The notes under the pieces were generated by a model. The model saw only the letters and a program-made list of their open reading frames with translations. It did not search any database and was not told where the DNA came from. A stretch of 64,000 bases of DNA from Ignisphaera sp. (lineage in GTDB: Archaea; Thermoproteota; Thermoprotei_A; Sulfolobales; Ignisphaeraceae): contig JAWAHS010000006.1 in the NCBI GenBank assembly GCA_038889075.1, positions 1-64,000 on the forward strand, given 5' to 3'. This document shows positions 8,939 to 59,102 of this stretch, in pieces. A program made the translations under genes and the position numbers. Each line of letters begins with the position of its first letter. Position 1 is the first letter of the stretch.

Positions 8939-9583
8939 CTAAACGCTATAACCACTAATTTGATCATAGTTTAGCGTCTTTCTGCTCATTACAATCCTAC
9001 CAAGAAGTGATGCCAGCCTATCTGCTACCTTGAGAGGATATGGTTCTATAAATACTCTTCTAACCTTCTCTATATGCTCTATAACTGCTGCCATTGAAAG
9101 TCCTAGAACATATACTCTTATTTTTGTATCATCCACTTTTACTTCAAGACTGTTTCTATATGTATAGTCTATAATGCTGTATCTATATGTATAGTCGATA
9201 AAGTGTTCCTTAAGTGCTTTGAATATTTTCATTACATCTAATTGATGTCTAAATATTACAGCCAGCGGTATGTTAAATATATTATAGATCCTTCTCGGAT
9301 CTATAATATTGAAACCTGCATATGTAACACCATCTAGAAACGCTACCTGTATTGGATATAGAGTAGATGCTTTAGCAATTACTCTACTTGCTGATGAAGT
9401 AGCATCGAGACCATCTATGGATATCCTATCTATGAACATGTCCGCGAACCTCCGTCCACACATTACAATACCGACTAGAACCGTTTTACTGCTTCTATTC
9501 ATCCTCTTGAGATTGATGTCGAAGTAACCATCATCTATCCCTAGATAACAGGGACTCGATGTAGCTATCTCCACGTATTGCAT
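8939..9583 (-). CDS. DUF99 / endonuclease V-like protein
   Basis: LGIDDG, DGLDAT, LDGVTYAGFNIID and PYPLKVAD. Confidence 0.8.
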   Translation of the reverse strand: MQYVEIATSSPCYLGIDDGYFDINLKRMNRSSKTVLVGIVMCGRRFADMFIDRISIDGLDATSSASRVIAKASTLYPIQVAFLDGVTYAGFNIIDPRRIYNIFNIPLAVIFRHQLDVMKIFKALKEHFIDYTYRYSIIDYTYRNSLEVKVDDTKIRVYVLGLSMAAVIEHIEKVRRVFIEPYPLKVADRLASLLGRIVMSRKTLNYDQISGYSV

Positions 9584-10751
9584 TTAATATCACATCATCT
9601 GGTACTGCAAGAGAGATCATTCTGGTCTTACCATATCTTCCACGACTTATTAACCTAGCTGTTATTATTCCAACCATATCAAGTTCGCTGATTATATCAC
9701 TAACTCTTCTCTGCGTCACACTTTCAATTCCTAATTTTGTGCACAGAGTTTTATAATGAATGTATACTTCGCCTGTCGTTGTTTTTACACTATTTCGTGT
9801 AAGATTATAGATTGCCAGTAGGACTAATTTACTATGGAGAGGCATTGTTGATATTAGTTCACCAACTCTATCCCTCTCTATCTCCTTTAGTGCTCCATAG
9901 ACGTGATTAACGGAAATCGTTTCTGCCCCCTCCCTCTCTGCAATTTCTCCTGCAACCCTTAAAAGGTCGAGAGCTCTTCTTGCATCACCATGCTCACGCG
10001 CTGCCAAACTCGCACATAAGCTTATCACTGCATCGTTTATAGCTTTTGGATTAAATGCTATCTTAGCCCTCCTCTTAAGTATATCCTCAAGTTGTATAGC
10101 ATTATATGGTGGAAACACTATTTCTATTTCACCGAGGCTGCTTCTTACACGTGGATCTAAATCTTCAATTAGCTTTAAATCATTTGTTATACCAATTATC
10201 GATATTCTCGAATGTGTAAGTTCATCACTACTTCTAGAGAGCCTATATAGAAGTTCGTCACCCTGCTTCTTAATGAGGAAATCTATTTCATCTAGTACAG
10301 TAACCATTATGGAATTTCTAGAATCTAGAACTTTAAGAAACCTTCTATATGCCTCAGCTGTTGATATACCGGTAAATGGTAGCTTTAATCCTATACATTC
10401 ACCCAGTCTTATTATAACACGATATGTAGTATCCTCCTGCCTGGTATTTATATAACATGGCACTATATCAGAGCCCACCTCAATAGCCTTACTATAGAGC
10501 CTCTTTAACACATACTTGGTCACAGCAGTCTTACCTGTACCCGTTAACCCATATATGAATATATTATTAGGCTTTGAACCTTTTAACGCAGGTGCTAAAA
10601 TAGATCCAAGCTTAGAGACTTGCTCCTCCCTATGGGGCAGCTCATCAGGTATATATTCAGGTCTCAGAACATCCCTATTAATAAATATCATAGATTTCAA
10701 TGCACTATTAAATACTTCCTCTAACTCATCTCCATATGCTAACATTTCCAA
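9531..10751 (-). CDS. cdc6: Orc1/Cdc6 replication initiator (Orc1-1 type)
   Basis: LPHRE, GLTGTGKT, LDEID, GDARRALDLL and the winged-helix wing RGRYGKTR. Confidence 0.96.
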   Translation of the reverse strand: MEMLAYGDELEEVFNSALKSMIFINRDVLRPEYIPDELPHREEQVSKLGSILAPALKGSKPNNIFIYGLTGTGKTAVTKYVLKRLYSKAIEVGSDIVPCYINTRQEDTTYRVIIRLGECIGLKLPFTGISTAEAYRRFLKVLDSRNSIMVTVLDEIDFLIKKQGDELLYRLSRSSDELTHSRISIIGITNDLKLIEDLDPRVRSSLGEIEIVFPPYNAIQLEDILKRRAKIAFNPKAINDAVISLCASLAAREHGDARRALDLLRVAGEIAEREGAETISVNHVYGALKEIERDRVGELISTMPLHSKLVLLAIYNLTRNSVKTTTGEVYIHYKTLCTKLGIESVTQRRVSDIISELDMVGIITARLISRGRYGKTRMISLAVPDDVILNAIRGDSYIESLLSRDR

Positions 10752-23229: not shown

Positions 23230-23503
23230 TTGTACCGCCGTAGATTAATAAGGTGAATAAGGTATAAATTTATTCTGTTCTAAATGAACATTTATACAAA
23301 CCCAGAATATACCTATAGCTAAAACTAAAGTGGTATCGCTAGGAATACAGCAGTTTATATATAGAGGATCTAGGCGCATACAGGGGTTTATAGTGGGAGT
23401 TGTTAGTTACAGCACCTTTCCTTCCATACTTTATCACCAAGTTCTTTAACCATTCATTAAGCATGAAATTGAGATCCTGGTGTAGCTGTTTTCGTTTAAT
23501 TAG

Positions 23504-27731: not shown

Positions 27732-30035
27732 CTAAGCCATCGTTTCCAATTCTACTATTTTTTCTCCTATAATAGACCTTCCACCTACTTTATTTACATA
27801 GAATACCTTATCAGCGAGATCGGTAACATCAGTATCATGGGTAACCACAATTACTTGCGGTACTTTCTCTGATAACCGCTTTATAATCTCAAAAAGTGTT
27901 CTCCTACGAGTTGAATCCAAGAACTGTGTAGGTTCATCTAGTATGAAGAATCCTGGAAGCTTGCCAAATACTGTATAGGCTGTAGCTATCCTTAATGCTA
28001 TTGCTAGAGCAACCATTTCTCCCCCACTGAGACTCCTTACATCAAGTTCTCCATTACCACTCTTAACCTCTATATTAAAATCCTCATCTATATCTACATT
28101 AAAATCGAGCCCCAATTCACTTAGTATCCTATTTGTATAAATTTGGATAAGTCTTCTCGCTTCCCTGGTTAGAATCTTCGCTAATAATCCATCCCTTCCA
28201 AGGAATCTATTTACCAATACATCTACAGCTCTATATATCTCAACCGATTTTTTCAACTCTCTAACCCTCTCATCAATATACTTCAATTTATTCTCGATTT
28301 CTATCCTATGTTTAGTGTAGGCATCTATTTCACCATTAAGTTTAGAGAGTATTTGTGAAAGATTGTTGTATTCACTATTTAGTTCACGATATTTCAATTC
28401 GATATCGTTGTAATTCATTTTATCGGGATCTACGCCAAGTTGTAGAAGTTCATTCTTAATGATATTGAATTCTTCAACAATTTTATTTAAATCTACTTCC
28501 CCACCTATATAGAGTCTTCTAATGAAGTTGATCTTTTCATTATAAAGGTTTGTAATTTCAATTGCTTTTCTCTGTAAACATTGTACTAATTTTACTGTCG
28601 AACTTCCATATTCCGTGAAGCACTCTTTGAATTCTTCAATATTTATAATTTCCTTAATTATTGATTGAATTTTCTGCTGCATATCACTATATTTCAATAC
28701 AGCCTTATTTATTTGATCTCCAAGTTCCGCAATTTTTGATAATAGTTCTGCCCTAATCCTATCATACTTCTTCACATCATTAAGTATCTTTCTCAAAACT
28801 ATCTCAATTTCATCCATGTGGTATATAGAGTTCTTTAACTCCTCTATGTGCTTTGTAATTCCATTAATTAACTCGGTTTTCAATTCCTCAGTTAGCTCCC
28901 TTTTGCATAGAGGACACACAGTACTGCTCTTCAGTATATCAATAGAATTTTCATTAAATGAAACTTCAGCAGCCATGGTGTGTTTGATTCTCCTAACTTC
29001 ATCTAGATATCGCTCAATAGCCTCCACTACTTCACCATCTTTATCCCATTTAAATTCCATGTTTGAAATATTCTTAACTTCCTCAATTAATTCCTTAATT
29101 CTATTATTAATATCGTATAGCTGTTTATTTAGTTCATCAATTCTCCTCTTAGCATCATTGTATATCTCAAGCGTGGATGCCAGCTCTCCTAAGTTAATTC
29201 TGCTTAACCTATTGCAGTAATCTAGCAGTTTTCCCAATTTATTCAATTCTACAACAATTTCTTTAACAATTTTCAATTCATTATACCTATACAGTAGATC
29301 TTTAATTCTCTCAATAAGTTTAAGTCTATCAGAGAGCATCTGAACCTTTTCGCTAAGTTCATCTCTTTCACTAATCTTTTTACTAATTATCTTATCCACC
29401 TCTAGCAGTTGCTTCTTCATATCATCACCTTGTTTACTCAATTCCTCAAATAGCCTAATATCACCCTCAATCTTCTTTAGATTCTCCTTCAGCAGCTCCT
29501 TAGCCTTCTCAATTTCATCTAAACCGAGTAATCTTAGTACCATTTCTCTCCTGCTACTAGACGTTTCCTCAATAAATGATGTAAGCTCATTTTGCCTAGA
29601 TACAATTGTATATCTTATGGACTCGAGTGACGGTATACCTAAGATTTCCTTAACAAACTCTAGCACTCTAGACACACTTGAAGCTAGCACCCTTTTCTTA
29701 TCACCCTCAACTTCAATTAATACAGCAGATTCTGATTTTGTTGAGCTTAAGATCCTCTGGATAATATATGATTTCCCACCCACATTAAGCTCAACCTCAA
29801 TTAGACCATCGCTTGCTCCTATTCTTAATAGGCTTCTCCTCCCACCACCTCTAAAACTTCTTGCAGATTGTGGATTGAAGAGAAGGGCATATACTATCGA
29901 ATCTATTATAGAGCTTTTGCCTGCACCATTTGGCCCTATGAGGGCTGTTAATCCAAGTGGGAATTGTATTTCTGTACTCTCATGTGATAGAATATTCTTT
30001 ATTTTAACCCTTTTAACAATAATCATATTGCTCAT
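27732..30035 (-). CDS. rad50: Rad50 ATPase
   Basis: GPNGAGKSS, CPLC zinc hook, LSGGE and LDEPT. Confidence 0.93.
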   Translation of the reverse strand: MSNMIIVKRVKIKNILSHESTEIQFPLGLTALIGPNGAGKSSIIDSIVYALLFNPQSARSFRGGGRRSLLRIGASDGLIEVELNVGGKSYIIQRILSSTKSESAVLIEVEGDKKRVLASSVSRVLEFVKEILGIPSLESIRYTIVSRQNELTSFIEETSSSRREMVLRLLGLDEIEKAKELLKENLKKIEGDIRLFEELSKQGDDMKKQLLEVDKIISKKISERDELSEKVQMLSDRLKLIERIKDLLYRYNELKIVKEIVVELNKLGKLLDYCNRLSRINLGELASTLEIYNDAKRRIDELNKQLYDINNRIKELIEEVKNISNMEFKWDKDGEVVEAIERYLDEVRRIKHTMAAEVSFNENSIDILKSSTVCPLCKRELTEELKTELINGITKHIEELKNSIYHMDEIEIVLRKILNDVKKYDRIRAELLSKIAELGDQINKAVLKYSDMQQKIQSIIKEIINIEEFKECFTEYGSSTVKLVQCLQRKAIEITNLYNEKINFIRRLYIGGEVDLNKIVEEFNIIKNELLQLGVDPDKMNYNDIELKYRELNSEYNNLSQILSKLNGEIDAYTKHRIEIENKLKYIDERVRELKKSVEIYRAVDVLVNRFLGRDGLLAKILTREARRLIQIYTNRILSELGLDFNVDIDEDFNIEVKSGNGELDVRSLSGGEMVALAIALRIATAYTVFGKLPGFFILDEPTQFLDSTRRRTLFEIIKRLSEKVPQVIVVTHDTDVTDLADKVFYVNKVGGRSIIGEKIVELETMA

Positions 30036-31291
30036 CTATTTTCACCAGCAAATGATAATAGTGATGCCCTTCTGTTTACCGAATCTTTTCTATCCCTATT
30101 TCTAACCGAATCCACCATATTGTTATTTGAATCTCGATATTGAGCTGAACTGTAAGTAGAGCTCATCTCTAGAGCTTTTACAGCTTCCACATTATTTTTC
30201 AAAAACTGTATAATTTCATCTGCTATCTGTCTCGTTGGCTCTTTCACGTATCTCGATATCAATAATGCTAAATTTTCATGCTTAATGATATTCTGTATGA
30301 TTTTGTCTAGGTCTATGTATTCATACACATCATCCATCTTAACCGTACTACCCTCTAGAATACCACCTTCATCGGCTACCTTAATCCTATAATATTCTAT
30401 TACTCCCTTATTAATCATCTCATTAAGAATCCTTGTAATAACTTCCACCCCTATCTTTAATAGCTCTACAGAAACTATAGGTCTCTTACTACTGTCTATT
30501 CGATGAACTATTTCAGAAAGCTCTTTAACGCATAGAGATGCATCAGCACACCTTACTCTCACCCACGGTCTGACACTCTTAAGCTTAAGAAAATTAACTA
30601 TGGGCTCCTTCGGACCTAGATCAACAAGAGCTACATACTTATCACAACACTCGTTTTCTCTATGAATTTCGGTCGCACCTGGATATATGGCTGGCGCACC
30701 ATCCACATGTCTAAGCTCTGTCTTCACATGGTAATCTCCTAATGCAATGTATGTGAAACCTTTTGGAATATGATTAAGTGATATATCTGCTTCTTCACTA
30801 GGTATACCAAGTTCTCTTAGAAGAAGGTGTGCTATAAGTATGTTCCTATTACCTTCTTTAGAAACAGCCATCTTAGATATGAGACTCCTTAATCCATAGG
30901 GTACAGCATAGATTGAGACTACCAATGAAGGATATTCGAATGTTTTATTAGATACAGAATTTATAGCGAGCACGTCTATTACTCCTAGATCTTGGAGTAA
31001 ATATAGTGGTGATATGGCATGCCTTCTAGGAATATCATGCTGCCCTGAGATGACAACCGTTCTTATCCCTGACTCTTTAAGCTTTTTCAATTCTCGGTAA
31101 GCTATTATATACGATTCTGGAGGTGGATTCGGGCTATCAAAAAAATCGCCCGCATGTAGATATATGGAAACTCTCTCCTTTAAAGCAATATCAACGGTTT
31201 CCTTAAACGCCTCATAGACATCCCTAGCTCTGGAAACAAGACCGTAGGGCATTGCACCAAGATGGGTATCACTTACATGAAGTATAAGCAT
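30032..31291 (-). CDS. mre11: Mre11 nuclease
   Basis: SDTHLG, AGDFFD and GQHD; lies between herA and rad50. Confidence 0.88.
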   Translation of the reverse strand: MLILHVSDTHLGAMPYGLVSRARDVYEAFKETVDIALKERVSIYLHAGDFFDSPNPPPESYIIAYRELKKLKESGIRTVVISGQHDIPRRHAISPLYLLQDLGVIDVLAINSVSNKTFEYPSLVVSIYAVPYGLRSLISKMAVSKEGNRNILIAHLLLRELGIPSEEADISLNHIPKGFTYIALGDYHVKTELRHVDGAPAIYPGATEIHRENECCDKYVALVDLGPKEPIVNFLKLKSVRPWVRVRCADASLCVKELSEIVHRIDSSKRPIVSVELLKIGVEVITRILNEMINKGVIEYYRIKVADEGGILEGSTVKMDDVYEYIDLDKIIQNIIKHENLALLISRYVKEPTRQIADEIIQFLKNNVEAVKALEMSSTYSSAQYRDSNNNMVDSVRNRDRKDSVNRRASLLSFAGENR

Positions 31292-31337
31292 ACAGTATCC
31301 CTCAAATCCTCCTCTATCACCTAAGTAATTAGTGGGA

Positions 31338-33062
31338 TTAGCTCTGTAGCAAATCCTTTAATTCACTATATGCATCTGTATCGATTCTCGTCACGATACT
31401 CGATACATCCTTTCTATACTTAGAAGCTCTCCAGATGGATGCTATGTCCAATGAGGAACCCATATGCTTTCCCAAGTGCCTTTCTATCTTAACATAGGCT
31501 GGGAATCTACCAATCCATTCACCTAAAATCAAAGCTTCCCCAACATTCATTGATGAAAGTGAACGTGCCAAATCTTCGGTAAGCATATCAGATATATTCA
31601 TAATTGCTAGTTGATCACTCTCCTGGATAAGCTTCATAAATATGAAGTTCTGTATTTGGCTAAGAGTATTTGGATCTATATTCCTTGGTCTCTGTGAGAC
31701 TATAGCTAGCGATAAACCGAATTTCCTCCCCTCCCTAGCAACTCTCTCTATAGAGGTTTTTGAAATGGTTGCCCTATTTACATTGAGGAATAGGTGTGCT
31801 TCTTCAATAAAGATAAGAATGGGATTTGGGGCATTCTCTATCATTCTACCTCTTACGTATCTTAGAAGTTCATCTAGTATTATCTTGAGGCTGTAATCCC
31901 TCTGATCGTCATTTAGCATCGATGCATTAACTATAATTATAGATGAAGGTGCTGCCAACTCTATGGGGTGTGGCGTATTAAAGCTTACAGCTGCGTATTC
32001 AAAGAATTCATCAACCTTACTACACGCCTTTGCTACAGCTTCGCTATTACTATCCCTAGAACTCTTTATAAGAACCTTTACGTATTCCTTTAAAAGCCAC
32101 GCTAGCCTATCGTTGATATCCATATCTTCCTCATCATCTACCATATAACCTCTAAAATCATATTGTAGAGAAGGACACTTATCTCTATCCCGAAGCAGTT
32201 TCCCAACTTCGGAAGTACTTGGATTACTAAGGATTTTAACCGCCTCCTCTGATATACCATACATCTTCACCACCGACTCAAATAGCAGCTTTGCACAACC
32301 AAGTGCTCTCATTGTCAATGCTCTCTGAATCGTTGCGGCGGCCTCAGGTATTATCATTCTAGCTAAAGTTCTTGGATGTATTTTAAGAGGATTCAGCTTA
32401 TAGTCTATAACATGTATATACACATCGCTATACATACTCCTCAATGATGAGTACTCCCCATGGACATCGAATATGATGACTGTTCCTCCTAATGATGCTA
32501 TTTTATCTGCCAGTAAAGCAACTGTATTGCTTTTTCCCGAACCTGTTGTACCTGTTATAAATAGATGCTTTGTTAGTGCATTAACATCTACATATATTTC
32601 TACATCACTTCTACTGGTCAGATGCCCTATCTTTATCGAACTATCACTTCTTCTACTGAACATTTTAGATAACACAGATGGTGGTGCGAGAAAGACGTGA
32701 CTATCTGGAGGTGGTGGTACAGAGGCAACCTCAATACCATTTTCATACACATCGGCTATTATTCTAGCCACTGATGGCGAATACCTCAGAAGTTCATCAT
32801 CTATACCGATAGTTTGCATCGATGTAGCGGTAATCGTAGGACTTGTCGGGATGAGTTTCCTATATCCAGTACGACTAACGACTCCAACTAGACAGTGCTT
32901 CTTTACACTACCATTTAGAACATTAAGAGACTCAAAGGGTATTGTTATATATGTTCCAAGCGGTATTGGTCTTCTTGAAATAATTTCAACGTAGATTGGA
33001 GTGGATTCGGAGCCTACACGACCCACTATAATATCAGAGCTGCAATCCATAGCCATCAGCAT
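31338..33062 (-). CDS. herA: HerA DNA translocase
   Basis: HAS-barrel-like N-terminus, GTTGSGKS, DVHGEY, EEAH, REGRKFG and SQRP. Confidence 0.92.
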   Translation of the reverse strand: MLMAMDCSSDIIVGRVGSESTPIYVEIISRRPIPLGTYITIPFESLNVLNGSVKKHCLVGVVSRTGYRKLIPTSPTITATSMQTIGIDDELLRYSPSVARIIADVYENGIEVASVPPPPDSHVFLAPPSVLSKMFSRRSDSSIKIGHLTSRSDVEIYVDVNALTKHLFITGTTGSGKSNTVALLADKIASLGGTVIIFDVHGEYSSLRSMYSDVYIHVIDYKLNPLKIHPRTLARMIIPEAAATIQRALTMRALGCAKLLFESVVKMYGISEEAVKILSNPSTSEVGKLLRDRDKCPSLQYDFRGYMVDDEEDMDINDRLAWLLKEYVKVLIKSSRDSNSEAVAKACSKVDEFFEYAAVSFNTPHPIELAAPSSIIIVNASMLNDDQRDYSLKIILDELLRYVRGRMIENAPNPILIFIEEAHLFLNVNRATISKTSIERVAREGRKFGLSLAIVSQRPRNIDPNTLSQIQNFIFMKLIQESDQLAIMNISDMLTEDLARSLSSMNVGEALILGEWIGRFPAYVKIERHLGKHMGSSLDIASIWRASKYRKDVSSIVTRIDTDAYSELKDLLQS

Positions 33063-33191: not shown

Positions 33192-34868
33192 CTATTGCAC
33201 TTCCTCTTCCACCAATAAACCTTCAAATAGCATTTTGAGTGCCTCTCTACGTTTCCTCGACTCAGCTTCTTCGAATGTACCCTTAACGATAACTTCATAC
33301 AGTCTTGCTTCTTTACCTGGTAACGGTCTTAGAAGTCTACCTAGTCTCTGTATAAATTGTCTTCTAGATCCTGTTCCCGCTACTATTATCCCGACATTTG
33401 CATCCGGTATATCTATACCTTCATCACCAACTGTTGTCAGAACTAACACTCTTATGGCCCCCTGCTTAAACATCTCTAACCTCTTTTTTCTAGCATCCTC
33501 ATCAAGATCCCCAACAATGTAATATGTGGATAACTTTTCTGCAATCTTCTTAGCTTGCTCAATGTATTGTGTAAATATAAGTATTTTGCTATTATTTTCA
33601 AGTTCTTTATTCACTATCTTTATAATTGCATCAATCTTCTTTTCAGCATTATGTACCAGCGATCTTAATTCGCTTCTTACTTTTATAGCCTCTAGAGCCC
33701 CCATATCCCCCCTTCTGCTATCAGCTAATAACTGTTCAAATACTCTATTCTTTGCTAATTTTTTATATCTCTCTAAAAGATCTTTATACTTCTTCTTTTC
33801 ATCAGATGTAAGCTGTACGTACACTCGCTCAACTCTAAACGGTGCTACATAACCCTTCTCTATAAGCTCCTGAAGAGTCTTATTATATACGATTCCTCCC
33901 ATTAGCGGAAAAAGATCTGTGTGCCTTCCATCCTCTCTTATAACAGTAGCTGAAAGACCGAGCCTTATAGGAGCATACATGTTCTCAGCTATAAATCTAA
34001 ACTTATCAGCAGGTAAGTGGTGAACTTCATCAACTATTAGCATCGAAAAACCCATTGCAAGAATATCTACATATCTAAATGCCGACTGATATGTAGTTAT
34101 GGTTATTGGGGCAACTCTCTTCTCATTTCCATAAAAAAGTCCAACAATAGCGGGAGAAACATCTGTGAATTCTACTATTTTATCTCTCCATTGAAACATT
34201 TGCTCTTTCGTATATGTAACCACAAGTGTTTTGACATTAACTTCAGCCATGGCTGCTATAGCAATTACAGTTTTTCCGGTACCTGTAGGTAAGGATATGA
34301 TCCCTCTATACACATTTTTTCTCCAGGCTTCCAAAGCTTCAGTTTGGTAGTCTCGAAGAGTTCCTTTAAACGCTAATTTTAACGGAAGCTCTATTCTTTC
34401 CTCAATACCAGTTCTATTTACTACATCAATACCTCTCTTTTTAAGAGTATTAATGATGTCAAAGAGATGCATGGGTTTAGCTAGTTTGAATACCTTTGAA
34501 TTCTTATCATATATAAGTTTACCCTCTCCCCTAAGATCCTTAATGGTGTCACCTAAGAAGAAGTTTGGTACAAACACTATATCTCTTCCATAAAGCTCCA
34601 CAATTATTCTTGGTACATAGTTTTCAACGAGCCTCTTAATATCATCCATACTCCCCCTCTCAAACTCTACTTCATAGCTCATCAATACATCTAAAATATC
34701 GGATGGCTTCAACTCCGATCTTCTTAGAACTTCAGAAAGCTTATTCAAATCTATGGAGAATTTCGATTTACCTTCTTCTCTACCGAGATACCTAGAAAAC
34801 TTCAATAAAAGTTTAAAATCTTGTTCATCAATCCATTCATTAATATAAAATATGACACCAGCCGACAT
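33192..34868 (-). CDS. xpb: XPB/Rad25-like SF2 helicase
   Basis: LRDYQ, PTGTGKT, DEVHH, LSAT and QRLGRLLR. Confidence 0.88.
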   Translation of the reverse strand: MSAGVIFYINEWIDEQDFKLLLKFSRYLGREEGKSKFSIDLNKLSEVLRRSELKPSDILDVLMSYEVEFERGSMDDIKRLVENYVPRIIVELYGRDIVFVPNFFLGDTIKDLRGEGKLIYDKNSKVFKLAKPMHLFDIINTLKKRGIDVVNRTGIEERIELPLKLAFKGTLRDYQTEALEAWRKNVYRGIISLPTGTGKTVIAIAAMAEVNVKTLVVTYTKEQMFQWRDKIVEFTDVSPAIVGLFYGNEKRVAPITITTYQSAFRYVDILAMGFSMLIVDEVHHLPADKFRFIAENMYAPIRLGLSATVIREDGRHTDLFPLMGGIVYNKTLQELIEKGYVAPFRVERVYVQLTSDEKKKYKDLLERYKKLAKNRVFEQLLADSRRGDMGALEAIKVRSELRSLVHNAEKKIDAIIKIVNKELENNSKILIFTQYIEQAKKIAEKLSTYYIVGDLDEDARKKRLEMFKQGAIRVLVLTTVGDEGIDIPDANVGIIVAGTGSRRQFIQRLGRLLRPLPGKEARLYEVIVKGTFEEAESRKRREALKMLFEGLLVEEEVQ

Positions 34869-41558: not shown

Positions 41559-42737
41559 ATGGAGCATCTGATAAAGATGTTTCTTGCTGGTGAGAACTGT
41601 AGCGATCTCTATAGTGCTCTCTTAAATGATAGCATTCTAGCTGATTTTATTAGAGTGTGTAGAAATGCTAGCTGTAGAAACGCCCTTGAATTCTTTCTTC
41701 AAAAAGATAGCGAGAGTATGGCTAGCATCATTACAGTAGATTCCTATCTTAGGCTTTCTCCACTTGCACTAATCATCAGTATTCATTTCGGTAATCCATA
41801 TATAAATAGATTTGCATATAGGTTCTCTAAACTTTATGTAGATTACTATCTCGCATCTCTTAGTGAAGTTGAATTTATTAAAATAATTAGAGGTTTGGGA
41901 TTGGAGGTTGAGAAATCTGATGGATGTTTTAGTGAAGCTGATCTATACATAAATAGAAATAATGCTATCGTTAGGATATGCTATAGGTATAGAATACCCT
42001 TTACATCATATCTTAAAGCAGTTCGAAGCCTTTCATCAACAGAAGTTGTATGGAGTTTATCTATGATGCTCTTACAAAGGGGTTTTGTTCTTATTGAGAA
42101 TCGTGAGAAAGTTGCTAGAATTGCTATGGAATATTTAAGGAATCTTATAAGTAATAGAATTAGATCTATTCATACATCATGTAGCGATAGTAAGCTACTT
42201 CTTCAAAAATTTGTTGATAAGCTCTATTCATTTGACCAGAATCTGGCCAATGATATAAGGGATTTTGTTAAGCTTTTAGAATCAGAGACTCTACAGATCA
42301 GTAACTCGATTTCAACCTCTAAGGAAAAGACTCTAGAGATGAAAATCAATCTATCTGAGGCTTTAAAAGATGCAAAAAGTCTTCTACTATTCTCCGAGAA
42401 TTTCTTTCCACCATGTATGCAAGTTATATTAAGGTCATTAACCTCTGGTGAAAACCTAACTCATCATCAAAGGTTTGCCTTGGCCACTTTCTTAATAAAT
42501 CTAGATATCGATATCAATGAATTGCTGCAGATCTTCAGATCTAGTCCTGATTTTAATGAGAGAATAACTAGATACCAGTTGGAGCATTTAGCAGGTTTGC
42601 GAGGTTCGAAAAGACGTTACCTACCCTATAGTTGTTCAACCATGAAGACTCTAAATATGTGTAATAGTGAATGCGGTGTCAAAAACCCTCTTCAATACAC
42701 CTATCATAAACTCGGACTAAGACCCTTTCCTCACTAA
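41559..42737 (+). CDS. priL: DNA primase large subunit
   Basis: FPPCM, H..RF.LATFL, PDFNERITRYQ.EH and C-terminal Fe-S cysteines. Confidence 0.92.
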   Translation: MEHLIKMFLAGENCSDLYSALLNDSILADFIRVCRNASCRNALEFFLQKDSESMASIITVDSYLRLSPLALIISIHFGNPYINRFAYRFSKLYVDYYLASLSEVEFIKIIRGLGLEVEKSDGCFSEADLYINRNNAIVRICYRYRIPFTSYLKAVRSLSSTEVVWSLSMMLLQRGFVLIENREKVARIAMEYLRNLISNRIRSIHTSCSDSKLLLQKFVDKLYSFDQNLANDIRDFVKLLESETLQISNSISTSKEKTLEMKINLSEALKDAKSLLLFSENFFPPCMQVILRSLTSGENLTHHQRFALATFLINLDIDINELLQIFRSSPDFNERITRYQLEHLAGLRGSKRRYLPYSCSTMKTLNMCNSECGVKNPLQYTYHKLGLRPFPH

Positions 42738-43678: not shown

Positions 43679-43745
43679 AAATGAAACTATTGGCTATAAC
43701 TACTTAAAAATTTTGAAGTCTATAAACTGGTACTGGGGATTACCA

Positions 43746-44507
43746 GTGGATAGTATAGCCATTACAATAGAGCCGAAGATACTAATAGCATACCCCAATG
43801 CAAAAGAATTTGCAGATGTGCTTAGTATAGTAAGCGAAATTGTTGATGAGGTTCTGATAAATATCGATTCACAGAGCTTTAGCATTAAAGCGCTAGATCC
43901 TAGTAAAATCGCCATGCTTTCAATAAATCTGCCTCCTGAAGCCTTTCAAGAATACAGAGTATCTGAAGAGGTTAGTATAGGTATAGCAGTTTCGGTTCTA
44001 TCAAAAATACTGAAACAGTTAAAGAAGAGCGATAGAATAACAATAGCAGCTAATAACGAACATGTTGAAATACTGGTAGAGGGTATGTCGATAAGGAGAT
44101 ACAAGTTTAAGAACCTTGAAGTTATAGCTGAGGAAGCACCTGAACTTACACCAGAATATGATGTAGAGGCCTCTATACTTTCATCACCACTTAGAACAAC
44201 CCTTAGTGAATTGACATCCATTAGTAGCACAACTGGTATTACAGCCAAGGATGATACAGTATTGTTCTTCGACTATGATACCAAGAAAAGTATATATAGA
44301 CTTACAACAACATCAGGTACGGTTATTAACTTGAATATTAGGAAGGAGTCTACCGCTGCATATGATAGTGAATACCTTTCAAAAATCATAGAGATGCTGA
44401 AGCTTAGTAATATAGTTGAACTGAAATATGGCTCGAAAGCCCCGCTACACCTCTCAATAGAATTTGCAGGAGGAAGAATAGAATATTTCCTTGCAATAAA
44501 AATGTAG
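43746..44507 (+). CDS. pcn: PCNA sliding-clamp subunit (start uncertain)
   Basis: ALDPSKIAM, FQEY, YDSEYL and PL.L...YFLA. Confidence 0.9.
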   Translation: MDSIAITIEPKILIAYPNAKEFADVLSIVSEIVDEVLINIDSQSFSIKALDPSKIAMLSINLPPEAFQEYRVSEEVSIGIAVSVLSKILKQLKKSDRITIAANNEHVEILVEGMSIRRYKFKNLEVIAEEAPELTPEYDVEASILSSPLRTTLSELTSISSTTGITAKDDTVLFFDYDTKKSIYRLTTTSGTVINLNIRKESTAAYDSEYLSKIIEMLKLSNIVELKYGSKAPLHLSIEFAGGRIEYFLAIKM

Positions 44508-48456: not shown

Positions 48457-48563
48457 TGGAGCCGGGGCCGGGATTCGAACCCGGGGAATAACGGGTCTCG
48501 ACGGACGGAAGTCGGAAATGCGCCACTGCAGCCCGCCGCCTTAGACCGCTCGGCCACCCCGGC
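48457..48563 (-). tRNA. tRNA-Cys(GCA) with 29-nt intron at 37/38 (48497-48525)
   Basis: gcggg-ctGCAg[intron]a-cccgt; CCA encoded. Confidence 0.9.
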
Positions 48564-48617: not shown

Positions 48618-48709
48618 TGCCGCCGGGGGGATTTGAACCCCCGACCTCCCGGTTTCTACAGGATCTCTTCTTCAGCCGGGCGCTCTCCCGGAAGCTGAGC
48701 TACGGCGGC
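48618..48709 (-). tRNA. tRNA-Phe(GAA) with 16-nt intron at 37/38 (48654-48669)
   Basis: cccgg-ctGAAg[intron]a-ccggg. Confidence 0.9.
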
Positions 48710-48767: not shown

Positions 48768-49955
48768 CTATTCTATAAAATCTTTTGTTCCAATTTTCGT
48801 AGGTATATATGTATCTGCCAGAAAGTAGAGACCCTTGCCTGTTAGTGCCTCTATCTCAAGCTTGCTCTGCTTATCTATGAAAATGTTTATCTCCCTCAAC
48901 CATCCCTCTGTTTTAAACCATTCGTAGTTTAGCAGCTCCTGTGCTCTCTTAATATCTGTTTTCTTTGCCTTTATGATAAAATTCCTTCTCTCATTTTCAG
49001 AGAGGTATGGTTTCTTGCCTCTCTGCTTATCTCCAAAAATATCACTCATACTAACACCTAGAAACTTTGCCTTTGGTGTTGCAAGTCTTTCAGATTCGTA
49101 TGATAGTGTAATCGATCCTGTTCTAAATACGCTGTATATATACCATCCATACGGATCTGCATCTGTGAGTATGTATACTGGTAGGTTGAGCTCCTCATTC
49201 AATCTTCTTACAAATCTTCTAGTAGCTCTATCGGGCTGTCCAGCACTTGTTATCAATATAGCCCTGTACTTTCTCCAAAATCCGGCTCTATGGAGTTGCT
49301 GGAATACAGCATCCTTCTCTACAACTAGAACAAACTCAGCGCTAACATCCACGAATTCTATCAGATCCGGCGTCGGCTCTATGGAATATGCTCCGTGGCC
49401 CATCTTACTAAGATCTATCACATCATCACCTGATCTAATCCTCATATCACCCACAACCTTGCCCTTCTCCTTACTAAGTATCAACATCTCCTCTCTAAGC
49501 AGATTCACATACACCTCTATATCTCTTAGAACAGAATCGCTCTCCTTCTGCTCATCCCATGTATTCTCCTCTCCAATCCTGTTCCTATGATCCCTATACC
49601 TTATGCTGTGCTTTCCACGATAGAATAGATCTCTTATCGTAGGGTACTCGTTACTTATGAGAGCCTCATATATAATCCTAGCCATCAGCATGGTCTGCAT
49701 AAATTTCCTAGACTCCTTTACATCCATAAAGCTCCTCTCAAAGGTTGCTGAACCTAGTAGCAGAATACCCTTCTCTACATCATATACAGTATTGGATAGT
49801 GTCCTCCTAGGTATTATAAGCTTTGGCTCCTCACCACTAAGTACAGCTTTAGCGATTTTCTCAAATGCCTCTCTAATTCTTTCAGCAGCTAGCTGCCTAG
49901 CCTTAATATCAATTGACGATGCGAACTTTCTCCCCTCATCCATACTACCCACCAC
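48768..49955 (-). CDS. top6A: DNA topoisomerase VI subunit A
   Basis: TIRDLFY catalytic Tyr, VVEKDA, GQPD and DADPYG. Confidence 0.96.
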   Translation of the reverse strand: MVGSMDEGRKFASSIDIKARQLAAERIREAFEKIAKAVLSGEEPKLIIPRRTLSNTVYDVEKGILLLGSATFERSFMDVKESRKFMQTMLMARIIYEALISNEYPTIRDLFYRGKHSIRYRDHRNRIGEENTWDEQKESDSVLRDIEVYVNLLREEMLILSKEKGKVVGDMRIRSGDDVIDLSKMGHGAYSIEPTPDLIEFVDVSAEFVLVVEKDAVFQQLHRAGFWRKYRAILITSAGQPDRATRRFVRRLNEELNLPVYILTDADPYGWYIYSVFRTGSITLSYESERLATPKAKFLGVSMSDIFGDKQRGKKPYLSENERRNFIIKAKKTDIKRAQELLNYEWFKTEGWLREINIFIDKQSKLEIEALTGKGLYFLADTYIPTKIGTKDFIE

Positions 49956-49961
49956 ATAGAA

Positions 49962-51545
49962 TCATTCAATTGATAGAACTACATCCCTTGGAATGGATAT
50001 TCCTTTAATATACTCACCATATCTCCTCTTTACAAGCTCAAACAGCTTATCCTCTATAAGCTTTGGATCCACGGGTTCAGGATTTGAACGGAGAAATGTT
50101 GCTAACGCTATCGATACCTCGGGTATATACTTGATGATAGTGACCGCCTTCCTCATGTATTCCTCTTCCCTCTGCTTCCTCGTCAAGTAAAGCTTCAGAG
50201 ATCTTGCAACATGCCTTACACCCTCCTCAAGTTCACGTTCAATTACAGGCACCTCTGCTACACTCTCCTTACCAACACCCTTGTATGGTATCTTTGTCCC
50301 ACATATATGGGTGAGAATAGCTATGGGAGCTGGAAACGTCACATCATAGTAGTTCCAATCTATATTCTCCGATACAACCTTCCAAGAAACATCTGTTCTC
50401 TCGTCATACAGTAAAGGTATCTTGTTAGCGAATCGTAGAAGTTGGGGCTCATCTGAAGGCTCTATAGCTCCCCCATATGCTATCCCCACCTCAATAACTA
50501 CTGCGTGCCCCTCATAGACTATAGGCTTCATTGTTACAGCATCGGCGAATTCGGGTTTCAAAATACTGCTAAGCCCTATCTTTATCAGATCCGCTCCTAT
50601 TGGTGATAGATGCTCTGCTCTAGGTTTTCTAAACTCATTAAATTCCCTTAATGCTTTGGCCAAAGCTTCCAGCTCCTCCTTAGAAAGCTCCTTTGGATTC
50701 TTACTAGGTTCAAATCCATAGCTCTGTAGAAACCGTCCAGCAATCACCTTTCCAACGCCTTGGAATTCGTTGGCTATAAAATCTAGCAATGTCGGCTCCT
50801 TTGTTTCACTTATCATAGCCTTTAGCATCTCTATATCAATCCCATGTGGATGCGGTTTCGTCTCCCTGGGTGGTGGAGGTAGCTTATCCGTAGCTCTAGG
50901 ATACGTATATATCTCCCCATCCGGTGTCCTAAGAACGATGTTTGCATACGGGGTAACGATAGCTGTCCTCTTAACATAGTCCAATATCTTCTGCTTAGCT
51001 CTACCCCAATCACCTTCAACAGATATCTTTACTATGGTGCCATGCCAACCACCTATATTGGGCCATACCCCCCGCTGAAGAACTATTGGTTTGTTCTCCT
51101 TCACATCAATTGAAATTTTGTATGAGTATATCTTTTTAGAGCCTATGGTAGCGGAGACTATTTCAGCTGGCTCACCAACCGTTATCTGACCATAGAGGAC
51201 GATCATCTTTGCACCAAGACCGAAAAGTCCTCGGGTCTGTCTTAGAACATACTTTGAGCTAAATAGAACCCTTCCAAAAGCCTCAGGTATGTATTTCTCT
51301 GGAATCCCTATACCATTATCCTTAACAGTTATTCTATACACCATAGGCTTATCGGGACTCCTATCAATAGATATCTCTATATCTGGTAGAATTCCGTGGG
51401 CATCCGTAGCATCTAACGCATTCTCTAGCAATTCCCTTACAGATTGATAGAGGGCTCTAGCTGGATTGGAAAACCCTGCTATCTCCTTATTCCTATAGAA
51501 GAATTCCGCAGGACTTATAGCTCTAAATTTCTCCAGTGTACTCAT
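49962..51545 (-). CDS. top6B: DNA topoisomerase VI subunit B
   Basis: ELLENALDA, DNGIG, QTRG.FGLG and RFANKIPL. Confidence 0.96.
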   Translation of the reverse strand: MSTLEKFRAISPAEFFYRNKEIAGFSNPARALYQSVRELLENALDATDAHGILPDIEISIDRSPDKPMVYRITVKDNGIGIPEKYIPEAFGRVLFSSKYVLRQTRGLFGLGAKMIVLYGQITVGEPAEIVSATIGSKKIYSYKISIDVKENKPIVLQRGVWPNIGGWHGTIVKISVEGDWGRAKQKILDYVKRTAIVTPYANIVLRTPDGEIYTYPRATDKLPPPPRETKPHPHGIDIEMLKAMISETKEPTLLDFIANEFQGVGKVIAGRFLQSYGFEPSKNPKELSKEELEALAKALREFNEFRKPRAEHLSPIGADLIKIGLSSILKPEFADAVTMKPIVYEGHAVVIEVGIAYGGAIEPSDEPQLLRFANKIPLLYDERTDVSWKVVSENIDWNYYDVTFPAPIAILTHICGTKIPYKGVGKESVAEVPVIERELEEGVRHVARSLKLYLTRKQREEEYMRKAVTIIKYIPEVSIALATFLRSNPEPVDPKLIEDKLFELVKRRYGEYIKGISIPRDVVLSIE

Positions 51546-56310: not shown

Positions 56311-56688
56311 CTAGCTCCTAATAATCTTTCTTAGCTTTGGAGAAAATCCTTGGAAAACAACTTCGCTAACTATAGAAATTAGTGTTGCGTGATCTAGTTC
56401 TACATATTTCAATCTATTCTGTTTCTCAGCAATAGTAAACCCTACAACATGATAACAGGGGTAGCCCCTCTTTCTACCAATAAAATTTATAATAAAATCG
56501 CTACATGTACACATTCTACATGGTGATACGATATAGTCTCTATCGCTGCCTCTAAATACGTATACCATTAAACCATACATTCTGTCAATTAGAACTAGAA
56601 ATCTATTCATATTGATAGCACTCAAAAGCTTCTCATGATTTGCAAAGTGCTTCAGTATCTCATCTCTACATAGCGTCTCTAGCTCCAT
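56311..56688 (-). CDS. SWIM zinc-finger protein
   Basis: CTCSDF...CYH. Confidence 0.75.
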   Translation of the reverse strand: MELETLCRDEILKHFANHEKLLSAINMNRFLVLIDRMYGLMVYVFRGSDRDYIVSPCRMCTCSDFIINFIGRKRGYPCYHVVGFTIAEKQNRLKYVELDHATLISIVSEVVFQGFSPKLRKIIRS

Positions 56689-57084: not shown

Positions 57085-57401
57085 GGGTCCAGCCCATAGG
57101 CCGTTACGGGAAACCGAGGAAACACCGTCCTCCGTATGGAGCTGGAGCCCCGTAAGGGGCTGGGGCAATACCCCAGGCTCTGGCACAGAAACGATATGCC
57201 CACAAATCGATGAGGATGATGTGGCGAGGCCCTCTAGGTAACTAGGGGGCAGAGACCTATTGACGAGATTTGTGGAGGCAGTGAAACGGCCATCCTCCAG
57301 GGAGTAAGGACTACTCCAATGAATCTCCATATGAGGGGTAGAGAGCCGCTCTAGCCGAATACGGCTTGATCACAGAAGACGGGTTATTATGGGCTGGACC
57401 C
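57085..57401 (+). ncRNA. rnpB: RNase P RNA
   Basis: P1 gggtccagcccata/tatgggctggaccc; CR-I gaggaaac, acagaaac, gtgaaacgg and CR-V acagaagacgggtta. Confidence 0.95.
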
Positions 57402-57409
57402 AACAATGG

Positions 57410-57721
57410 GTGTTCTCTATAGGAACCAGAGGGGTTAGTAATATCCAACTGATACAATATTGCTAGATCATCATCTGATGTTGATGTACCCAGACCCCGT
57501 GTTTCACGTGCATCATTCGTTTTTAAAATACATTCCTGAAGTTTGTATAAAGATCTATGTATAGTTTTGATACTGATGTTGATTAAATCTATAGATAATA
57601 ATATGATGCATAGGAAATAGAGGGGTCTGGGATAATATATATGAAAATAATTGATTATTACATGATATGGTTGCTGTTAATGTGTGGGAAGAAAGTGTTC
57701 TCTACAGGAACCAGAGGGGTT
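57410..57721. other. putative chromosomal replication origin (4 ORB-like boxes plus AT-rich DUE)
   Basis: 27-bp direct repeat gtgttctcta(t/c)aggaaccagaggggtt at 57410 and 57695; inverted pair 57489-57516 and 57603-57631 around an AT-rich spacer. Confidence 0.8.
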
Positions 57722-59102
57722 CAATAATCTGGCTGATATGAGCCAACTCTATATTCGTTACCAGCGGTTTCCATATTTTTTCCTTTCCATACCTAGATAA
57801 CGGTTTAATGAGATGTTTTTGCATTCTAGCTGGTGGAATATATAGTTTCTGTTCAACAACTCTAGGCAGCTGTTCACAGTCAAGCTCAGGGTTAACAATG
57901 TTTACATCACATCTTTTGCATCTATATCCCTTACCCAATCCCATTTTCTCAACTCTTTTCTTACATACTTGACACCTAGGTGCTCTACACATATATCTCG
58001 ACTTAATATCTACAACTTGAATCTTCTCGACATGGAATACCATGGTCTTTCCCCAAGGTTTTACATGACCTTGCACAATTATCTCATCACCTATATTTAG
58101 ATCCATTGCTATACTTGTTAAAGTTGATGGTTTGAAGAAAACGAGATCTATACTACCTGTAGCATCGAATGCCTTCACCATAACAGCTCCGCCTGGAAGG
58201 ACCTCAGGTCTCGATATAATAACTGCGTGAAGTTTAGCTGTTGTGTACATTCTCAATTCATCTATATTTCTAGAGATACCATGCGCATCTGTTGCTTGGT
58301 TACTTCTAAACACTGTCCAAGCTACAATAGGTTCACATGTTTTAATGATATTGAGTGACATTCTCACCGCTTCTGGAGACTCACCCCTTACACCATAGAG
58401 TACGGGATCTGCACCATGTGATTCTATCAATATTCTTCCACTCTCATCATCAATATTATTGAAGGTGCTAGATCTGCTAATCTCATCGAATTCTTTAACT
58501 GAGTCTATCTCAATGCACCTTCTCATTCCGTACAGCTTCTTCGATCTGTATGTAAGAAGCTCGTATGTATAGTCACCTCCAGCTAAAAACCATCCGATTG
58601 CAGCAGATGCTCCAACCACTCCACGGTTTTTGAATACATCAATCAGATACACATTTCTATATCTCATAAGTTTTTCTATCACTATAGATGGTAACACTAC
58701 ATCTGATAAAGCTTTTGTATAGATTTCAGCCATTATTGAAGGAATAGTATTTGCAACGATAACAAGACCAGGTTCAACATCGTGTGTCGAGAGGGATAGA
58801 TCTAGAGTGCTGCTGATGCTATCACAATACTCTAGTAGCACACGTCGACAGTAATCTACAATATCTTGAACCTTGCTGCATTCTACTGAAATTCTTAGAG
58901 CGACAGCACCATTTCCTCGAGTTTTCCATGGAATAGAAGGATTTAGTCTAACTAAATTTGGATAGTCTATAAATGCTATCCTAAATCTATCAACTAATCT
59001 ATGCAGTAGATGTGTTGCGGCATGCGTTGTACAGCCATATTGATAGGAATCGAAATCATCGATCCCTATATGGAGTATGCAGGCGCTGTTATCTAGGCTC
59101 AC
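57702..59102 (-). CDS. tiaS: tRNA(Ile2) 2-agmatinylcytidine synthetase
   Basis: IGIDD.D...GCTT, LVRLNP.IPWKTRGNGA, SNQATD.H, Zn ribbon and HL.KP. Confidence 0.93.
   Translation of the reverse strand: MSLDNSACILHIGIDDFDSYQYGCTTHAATHLLHRLVDRFRIAFIDYPNLVRLNPSIPWKTRGNGAVALRISVECSKVQDIVDYCRRVLLEYCDSISSTLDLSLSTHDVEPGLVIVANTIPSIMAEIYTKALSDVVLPSIVIEKLMRYRNVYLIDVFKNRGVVGASAAIGWFLAGGDYTYELLTYRSKKLYGMRRCIEIDSVKEFDEISRSSTFNNIDDESGRILIESHGADPVLYGVRGESPEAVRMSLNIIKTCEPIVAWTVFRSNQATDAHGISRNIDELRMYTTAKLHAVIISRPEVLPGGAVMVKAFDATGSIDLVFFKPSTLTSIAMDLNIGDEIIVQGHVKPWGKTMVFHVEKIQVVDIKSRYMCRAPRCQVCKKRVEKMGLGKGYRCKRCDVNIVNPELDCEQLPRVVEQKLYIPPARMQKHLIKPLSRYGKEKIWKPLVTNIELAHISQIIEPLWFL

Follow-up and report, generated by a model that had tools for sequence, protein, structure and literature searches.

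A predicted oriC1-type replication origin beside tiaS and unlinked from orc1-1 in an Ignisphaera-lineage archaeon

The stretch of Ignisphaera sp. DNA considered here, hereafter the window, spans 64,000 nucleotides (GenBank assembly GCA_038889075.1, contig JAWAHS010000006.1, positions 1 to 64,000). Between rnpB, the RNase P RNA gene, and tiaS, the gene for tRNA-Ile2 agmatinylcytidine synthetase, it carries a block of four origin recognition boxes (ORBs), which is read here, with a probability of roughly 85%, as a chromosomal replication origin of the oriC1 type served by the Orc1-1 protein encoded in the same window. An origin had been proposed at this place from the letters of the sequence alone (the original prediction), and the proposal is now supported by an ORB weight matrix, by the architecture of the region, by the motif ucm and by conservation in relatives. 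Binding of Orc1-1, unwinding and firing of the origin are inferred by analogy with known origins.

The block holds several ORB elements in which a TCC..GGAA-type dyad is followed by a G-run, namely three strong boxes and one weaker, inverted box. The outer boxes, ORB-a on the left (57410-57436, plus strand; core 57413-57435, TTCTCTATAGGAACCAGAGGGGT) and ORB-d on the right (57695-57721, plus strand; core 57698-57720), have the dyad TCTAYAGGAA and form a 27-nt direct repeat with 26 of 27 positions identical (96%) and a spacing of 285 bp. The repeat search that returned this pair also gave a weaker third copy at 57601-57627 (67%). The inner left box, ORB-b (57489-57516), reads ATGATGCACGTGAAACACGGGGTCTGGG on the minus strand and is the most degenerate of the four, and the inner right box, ORB-c (57603-57631, plus strand), reads ATGATGCATAGGAAATAGAGGGGTCTGGG. 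Together they form inverted arms, which the search delimits as 22 nt at 57495-57516 and 57603-57624, 73% complementary and 86 nt apart, and which, read by eye, reach 57489-57516 and 57603-57631 (ATGATGCA..GAAA..GGGGTCTGGG). The G-runs of ORB-b and ORB-c lie at the arm ends distal to the spacer, that is, they face outward. ORB-b(-) and ORB-c(+) thereby bracket an AT-rich spacer (57517-57602), presumed to be the duplex unwinding element (DUE), in an ORB(-)/DUE/ORB(+) arrangement. The spacer is 86 bp long with 22.1% GC, and only 0.39% of 86-bp intervals in the 64 kb, where mean GC is 38%, are as GC-poor. The original prediction had described a 27-bp direct repeat with one mismatch, an inverted pair with outward G-strings and, by hand count, a spacer of about 86 bp and 22% GC; all of these were found where it had placed them.

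Chance accounts poorly for the motif. With up to three mismatches allowed, the 22-nt form occurs twice in the 128 kb made up by both strands of the window, and not one of 100 shuffles contained any match. The shorter form AGGAANNNGAGGGGT, with at most one mismatch, occurs three times in the window, always at the locus, against 0.23 expected, and none of 100 shuffles reached three. An ungapped weight matrix was further built from 32 boxes of eight relatives, without any sequence of the window. Scanned across the 64 kb, it ranks ORB-d (34.2 bits, the highest score in the window), ORB-a (32.2 bits) and ORB-c (25.8 bits) first; the next score, 16.0 bits, falls inside the range of maxima from ten block-shuffled windows (8.3-18.8 bits). 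Such a scan, which had been proposed as a check on the origin, thus picks out the boxes of the locus and nothing else in the window.

Within the spacer lies GTTTGTATAAA (57541-57551, plus strand), which agrees with the published ucm at 10 of 11 bases and is presumed to be a binding site for the ucm-binding protein UBP. The 11-bp ucm, GTTTGTATAAT, is defined by the wild-type and scrambled S. acidocaldarius oligonucleotides that were used to purify this protein (Dhanaraju et al. 2025, PMC12141716). In the available text of that study, the ucm of Sulfolobus oriC1 is located within the unwinding element, between the inverted ORB2 and ORB3, and 10-bp substitutions over it abolish the firing of oriC1 in S. 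islandicus in vivo; UBP is described as an abundant nucleoid protein that binds the ucm and contacts MCM, and its gene is reported there from Sulfolobales and Desulfurococcales only (PMC12141716). Finding a ucm within the putative unwinding element of the window provides an independent mark of an origin, one absent from the original prediction. The pattern GTTTGTATAAW occurs twice in the window, with 0.16 expected, and 11 times in 1.147 Mb of related loci. Nine of these 11 lie inside ORB clusters, including those of two loci outside the matrix training set (L010 and L056), and the pattern is found in the same spacer in seven of the eight relatives that share the layout.

The only other exact copy of GTTTGTATAAA in the window stands at 23291-23301 (minus strand), in a 275-bp intergenic region, and is flanked by an 18-nt inverted repeat (23260-23277 and 23303-23320). 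A second origin at this copy was rejected, since the matrix scan gives no ORB nearby and there is only the local inverted repeat; the copy is probably an ordinary site of a UBP-like nucleoid protein.

Relatives of the locus were collected by scanning genome contigs with a TiaS alignment, and 80 of at least 590 relatives were kept as loci, mostly from Bathyarchaeia, with six Ignisphaera metagenome-assembled genomes (MAGs; L001-L006) and about a dozen other Thermoprotei; A. pernix K1, H. butylicus and I. aggregans DSM 17230 are not among the 80. By its TiaS homologues the window falls nearest to Ignisphaera, a genus filed under Desulfurococcales in the NCBI taxonomy; the matches that bear this name are 47-53% identical to the TiaS of the window, and further matches 68-72%. 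Twenty selected loci were first scanned for the motif, which placed ORB pairs directly past tiaS in seven (L002, L004, L005, L006, L007, L008 and L013); the boxes of L003 were missed at one mismatch and recovered by the matrix, and L001 ends within tiaS. In all nine regions compared (the window, L002-L008 and L013) the order ORB-a(+), ORB-b(-), ucm-like 9-mer, ORB-c(+), ORB-d(+) is found just past tiaS. The shared layout covers Ignisphaera, other (Guaymas-type) Thermoprotei and Pyrodictiaceae, in which TiaS is 40-67% identical to that of the window. The outer boxes are spaced 285-302 bp apart in eight regions and 342 bp apart in L006, and the ucm-like 9-mer is inverted in L013. A MAFFT alignment of the nine regions has 456 columns with a mean identity of 51%, and the four ORB cores together with the ucm account for 40 of its 50 invariant columns (11 in ORB-a, 10 in ORB-c). 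At the place of ORB-b, minus-strand GGGGT is present in eight regions and AGGGT in L005. The sequence between the motifs has diverged, and the rest of the spacer aligns poorly across the nine regions. Lack of conservation in relatives had been named beforehand as grounds for giving up the origin; instead, the repeats and their order are kept in eight of them. That four boxes, an AT-rich spacer and a ucm are conserved together speaks for a functional origin.

At 19 bits or more the matrix has matches in 13 of the 80 loci and none in the other 67; eight of the 13 are training loci, which match by construction. Among loci outside the training set, L010, L012 and L056 carry two or three boxes and L054 a single box, at 0.7-7.3 kb past tiaS, and L009 (Bathyarchaeota) has one isolated match. 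As for the RNA gene, rnpB directly adjoins the ORB region in five of the nine loci scanned (L002, L003, L004, L006 and L007), and L005 and L013 retain the block with rnpB elsewhere.

Two further short boxes accompany the outer ORBs. GTGGGA (57684-57689, plus strand) stands 5 nt before the 27-nt ORB-d repeat, or 8 nt before its 23-nt core, and is kept in eight of nine regions, with GTCCCA in L013; in L054 and L056, GTGGGA-N6-TCCCAC directly precedes an ORB. ORB-a is directly followed by the extension TAGTAATA (57436-57443, plus strand), of which GTAATA is kept in eight of nine regions, including L005 with its lack of an adjacent rnpB. The GTGGGA and (T)AGTAATA boxes could be sites for a further origin factor.

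The presumed trans-acting initiator gene, orc1-1 (cdc6-1; 9531-10751, minus strand), is recognised by the Pfam families Cdc6_C, Cdc6_lid and AAA and lies 46,659 bp from ORB-a. Compared with solved chains, its product scores 465 bits with S. solfataricus Cdc6-1 (2qby_A) and 436 bits with Aeropyrum pernix ORC1 (2v1u_A), against 179 bits with Cdc6-3 and 76 bits with A. pernix ORC2, and the winged-helix stretches RGRYGKT and VTQRRVSDIISELDMVGI are conserved with respect to both DNA-bound crystal structures. Because of these scores and conserved stretches, the product is, by sequence, an Orc1-1 orthologue. No other Cdc6-family match was obtained among the 66 open reading frames (ORFs) of the window that were scanned with Pfam. 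The original prediction had the gene about 47 kb away with no ORB beside it, which agrees with the measured distance and with a best matrix score of 8.1 bits, within noise, between 8000 and 12000. In L002-L008 and L013, a tblastn search with the window Orc1-1 gave no orc1 at a distance of 10 kb or less from the origin.

The one locus in which that search did find a match is L012, a Desulfurococcales MAG, where orc1-1 (L012:6541-7728) is found 2.3 kb upstream of tiaS, and where two inverted ORBs enclose an AT-rich spacer (L012:18533-18699) 7.3 kb downstream of tiaS. In this MAG initiator and origin are linked to an intermediate degree. As to the limits of the gene in the window, its longest ORF opens at a TTG (at the 10692-10751 end), but both crystal-structure proteins align only from residues 18-20 onwards, and residue 21 is a Met; the gene probably starts some 60 nt downstream of the TTG.

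By analogy with Sulfolobus and Aeropyrum, Orc1-1 monomers, encoded 46.7 kb away, would bind the four ORBs with a fixed polarity, with the strong outer boxes a and d and the inverted inner pair b(-) and c(+) as their binding sites. The inner pair would bracket the 86-bp, 22% GC unwinding element, at which ATP-bound Orc1-1 would load MCM. A UBP-like nucleoid protein would bind the ucm in the spacer and help MCM to leave the origin, and replication would then run in both directions.

Several observations weigh against an oriC1-type origin at this site. Archaeal origins are generally found beside an initiator gene, according to the available text of PMC4010727, a typical though not universal trait that the distance to orc1-1 denies to this one. 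The 20 best matrix scores do not include ORB-b, the least conserved of the four boxes, whose dyad is poorly kept among relatives, and in S. islandicus each inner ORB is described as individually required (PMC12141716). The low rank of ORB-b can be ascribed to a gap between GAAA and GGGG that, judged by eye, is 1 nt shorter than the ungapped matrix expects. The cumulative GC skew has its minimum at about 58-60 kb, near the site, which agrees weakly with an origin, but it is not decisive, as only 6 kb lie to the right and the trend follows the gene strand; the genes to the right of the site are balanced in orientation, with four on the plus and four on the minus strand. As regards linkage, an origin apart from its initiator gene is already on record for A. 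pernix and Hyperthermus butylicus. A literature search returned nothing specific on Ignisphaera origins or on a link of rnpB and tiaS with oriC; the DoriC and Ori-Finder-Arch tables and the bioRxiv supplements, which were outside its scope, may already list such origins.

Many non-origin Orc1/Cdc6 sites, with effects on transcripts, are reported from S. islandicus (PMC3607249), and dormant origins exist in haloarchaea (PMC4595724), as far as the available texts describe them. The block might in the same way be a genuine Orc1-binding locus that fires rarely or no longer, be it a relic, a dormant origin or a place at which Orc1 organises the chromosome or controls transcription, and the degenerate ORB-b would fit this. 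Of the alternatives this one survives best, and it is still improbable: even where TiaS identity falls to 40%, the four ORBs, the AT-rich spacer and the ucm keep their order and spacing, which points to selection on the whole assembly rather than on one site, and the 64 kb contain no better ORB cluster.

An active origin that uses a different initiator, either a second Orc1 paralogue or a WhiP-like protein encoded elsewhere, is less likely still and is best called very unlikely. The view taken here is limited to 64 kb of the genome, crenarchaea usually have two or more Orc1/Cdc6 genes (PMC5333045), and the Sulfolobus origins are each said to have their own initiator (PMC12141716). However, the ORBs of Sulfolobus oriC1 are the binding elements of Orc1-1 (PMC12141716), and the protein encoded at 9531-10751 is a clear Orc1-1 orthologue, with 465 and 436 bits against 179 and 76. 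Further, A. pernix ORC1, whose gene is likewise unlinked, binds oriC1, and its second paralogue did not in the experiments described in the available text of PMC5333045. WhiP-type origins, such as Sulfolobus oriC3 and A. pernix oriC2, follow a different pattern, in which inverted repeats (IR) are arranged as IR(+)/ucm/IR(-) beside an adjacent whiP gene and canonical ORBs are absent (bioRxiv 10.64898/2026.08.15.744077, available text); the block in the window has canonical ORBs with G-runs. Pfam names none of the neighbouring ORFs as an initiator, a result to be read with the limit that recognition of WhiP itself by Pfam is not confirmed. The Orc1-1 of the window hence remains the preferred initiator.

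Both genes beside the block are transcribed towards it. On the left is rnpB (57088-57398, plus strand; Rfam RF00373, 170 bits against a gathering score of 84, full model 1-288), and on the right is tiaS (57702-59102, minus strand; Pfam TiaS_FLD, TiaS_TCKD, Zn_ribbon_TiaS and OB-fold, with homologues named TiaS). As the two genes are convergent, with their 3' ends facing the region, a promoter is not needed there. Such a position would suit a transcript-level element, be it a terminator, a small RNA or a 3' region common to both genes, and the region does fold somewhat better than shuffles (z = -2.23, 2 of 100 shuffles as good) and has two terminator-like hairpins where 0.8 +/- 0.9 are expected. 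The good fold, however, arises from pairing of the inverted arms of ORB-b and ORB-c, and the consensus fold of the nine regions reaches only -6.24 kcal/mol over 456 columns, with a covariation term of +0.35 and 16 predicted pairs, mostly of G-runs with C-runs. No Rfam family matches the region, and the block persists in L005 and L013 without an adjoining rnpB. Counts in the promoter and terminator scan are near the shuffle level and rest on bacterial consensus patterns. A structured RNA is rejected on the near-zero energy of the consensus fold, the lack of covariation and the lack of an Rfam match, and a transcript-level element of any kind is very improbable. Least credible of all is a mobile-DNA reading, in which a small element inserted next to an RNA gene accounts for the 27-nt direct repeats, as its ends or as a duplicated attachment site: repeats 285 bp apart do adjoin a stable-RNA gene, a common target of integration, but nine genomes, from several genera, have this pair at the same position with an interior that has diverged except for ORB-b, the ucm and ORB-c, the enclosed 258 bp hold no listed ORF of at least 50 aa and overlap only the tail of tiaS, and the window has no other copy of the repeat.

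The placement of the origin between rnpB and tiaS, as originally proposed, needs one correction. ORB-d is not wholly intergenic and covers the stop codon of tiaS (57702-57704) and its last six codons. Read on the minus strand, ORB-d gives GAA CCC CTC TGG TTC CTG TAG, or EPLWFL followed by the stop. In an alignment of 31 TiaS proteins, the ending is EPLxFL in 20 and EPxxFL in another two, and all of these belong to the 24 closest homologues; TiaS ends otherwise in seven more distant homologues, in P0018 and in P0019 (I. aggregans DSM 17230). In L007, L008 and L013 ORB-d is intergenic, and TiaS proteins from lineages with an intergenic ORB-d lack the EPLxFL tail. The variable residue x falls on a variable triplet of the ORB. 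The tail is further written in minority codons of this genome (CCC, 14% of Pro; CTC and CTG, 11% and 10% of Leu; TTC, 35% of Phe; 44 genes, 15,214 codons). Because the variable residue matches the ORB triplet, the codons are in the minority and the tail is lacking where ORB-d is intergenic, the DNA motif appears to keep the tail, which suggests that the motif and not the function of the protein dictates it. These observations can be joined into one tentative proposal, for which the odds are somewhat short of even: the origin of the Ignisphaera lineage would be anchored to tiaS rather than to an initiator gene, ORB-d would be dual-coded, with 21 bases acting as a predicted Orc1-1 site and as the stop and last six codons of TiaS, and one or more undescribed origin factors would have their sites at the GTGGGA and GTAATA boxes.

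The surroundings of the block are shared over a longer distance. The order topoVI-B, deoxyhypusine synthase, HisRS, IF-2B, PcrB, a 125-aa protein, Sec61-beta, rnpB, origin, tiaS, an AsnC-type protein and a ribosome-biogenesis protein is common to L003, L004 and L006. The 125-aa protein (56311-56688, minus strand), two genes from the origin, is also kept in L002, L007 and L013, and it has a CxC...CxH pattern that we take to be SWIM-zinc-finger-like. It was considered as a ucm-binding protein and rejected by sequence comparison, with no match to a solved structure at E up to 1 and none in Pfam; this was the extent of the search for UBP. Replication and repair genes other than orc1-1 are plentiful between 27732 and 51545, and comprise Rad50-, Mre11- and HerA-like genes (27732-33062), an XPB-like helicase (33192-34868), the primase large subunit (41559-42737), PCNA (43713-44507) and topoisomerase VI A and B (48768-51545). 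Rfam also gives two long tRNA matches on the minus strand, at 48460-48563 (104 nt) and 48618-48709 (92 nt), for which ARAGORN makes no call; they are probably intron-containing tRNAs clustered with tRNA-Ala and tRNA-Val.

With this analysis an uncultured, Ignisphaera-like lineage gains an origin annotation that is well supported. Further, the analysis extends the design of ORB, AT-rich spacer, ucm and ORB, with order and spacing kept, to Ignisphaera, Guaymas-type Thermoprotei and Pyrodictiaceae, in all of which the design adjoins tiaS and not orc1-1. Tools for origin prediction that favour intergenic regions next to an initiator gene could make use of this, and the loci offer natural sequence variants for the study of what ORBs and the ucm require. 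The understanding of archaeal initiation as such is left unchanged.

Known origins can be set beside the one proposed here. The oriC1 of Sulfolobus is reportedly the subject of studies by Robinson et al. 2004 and Samson et al. 2013, and that of A. pernix of studies by Grainge et al. 2006, Gaudier et al. 2007 and Robinson and Bell 2007; the first of the latter is said to describe two pairs of ORBs, four boxes in all, that surround an AT-rich region. In Pyrococcus, the cdc6 gene is adjacent to oriC. The Cdc6-bound ORB oligonucleotides of Pyrococcus share with the window the TTCC..GAA dyad core and a G-run (PMC1904270), and the boxes of L013, L010 and L012 carry TCCAGTGGAA, which matches the same stretch of these oligonucleotides. 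These are the only published ORB sequences obtained for comparison, as PMC8287685, PMC3089459 and PMC3607249, searched for boxes of Sulfolobus or A. pernix, yielded none. In Pyrococcus, unlike in the window, about 10 nt separate the G-run from the dyad, mini-ORBs are numerous (PMC1904270), and no ucm/UBP system is expected, as ubp is reported only from Desulfurococcales and Sulfolobales in the available text of PMC12141716. Closer by, the Pyrodictiaceae locus L013 has the same four-ORB layout just past tiaS, but its rnpB lies beyond tiaS, and its ucm-like 9-mer has the opposite orientation. The Ori-Finder-Arch preprint (bioRxiv 10.64898/2026.08.15.744077) gives an ORB(-)/DUE/ORB(+) pattern for S. 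acidocaldarius, M. jannaschii and H. butylicus at their main origins, and the main oriC of H. butylicus, compared here by its description in the available text, resembles the window also in having no adjacent initiator gene (bioRxiv 10.64898/2026.08.15.744077). The oriC1 of Sulfolobus/Saccharolobus, compared by layout, ucm and initiator score, has the same Orc1-1-bound ORBs, with an inverted pair flanking an AT-rich element and an 11-bp ucm inside it; it has three ORBs where the window has four (PMC12141716), and its orc1-1 is directly adjacent, (PMC12141716, PMC4010727), whereas in the window 46.7 kb separate orc1-1 from the origin, which has rnpB and tiaS as its neighbours. In A. pernix, like the window a member of the Desulfurococcales-grade crenarchaea and the source of an ORC1 with 436 bits to the window protein, the available text of PMC5333045 places neither cdc6 gene next to a predicted origin, and a ucm is present in both origins (PMC12141716), as it is in the origin proposed here.

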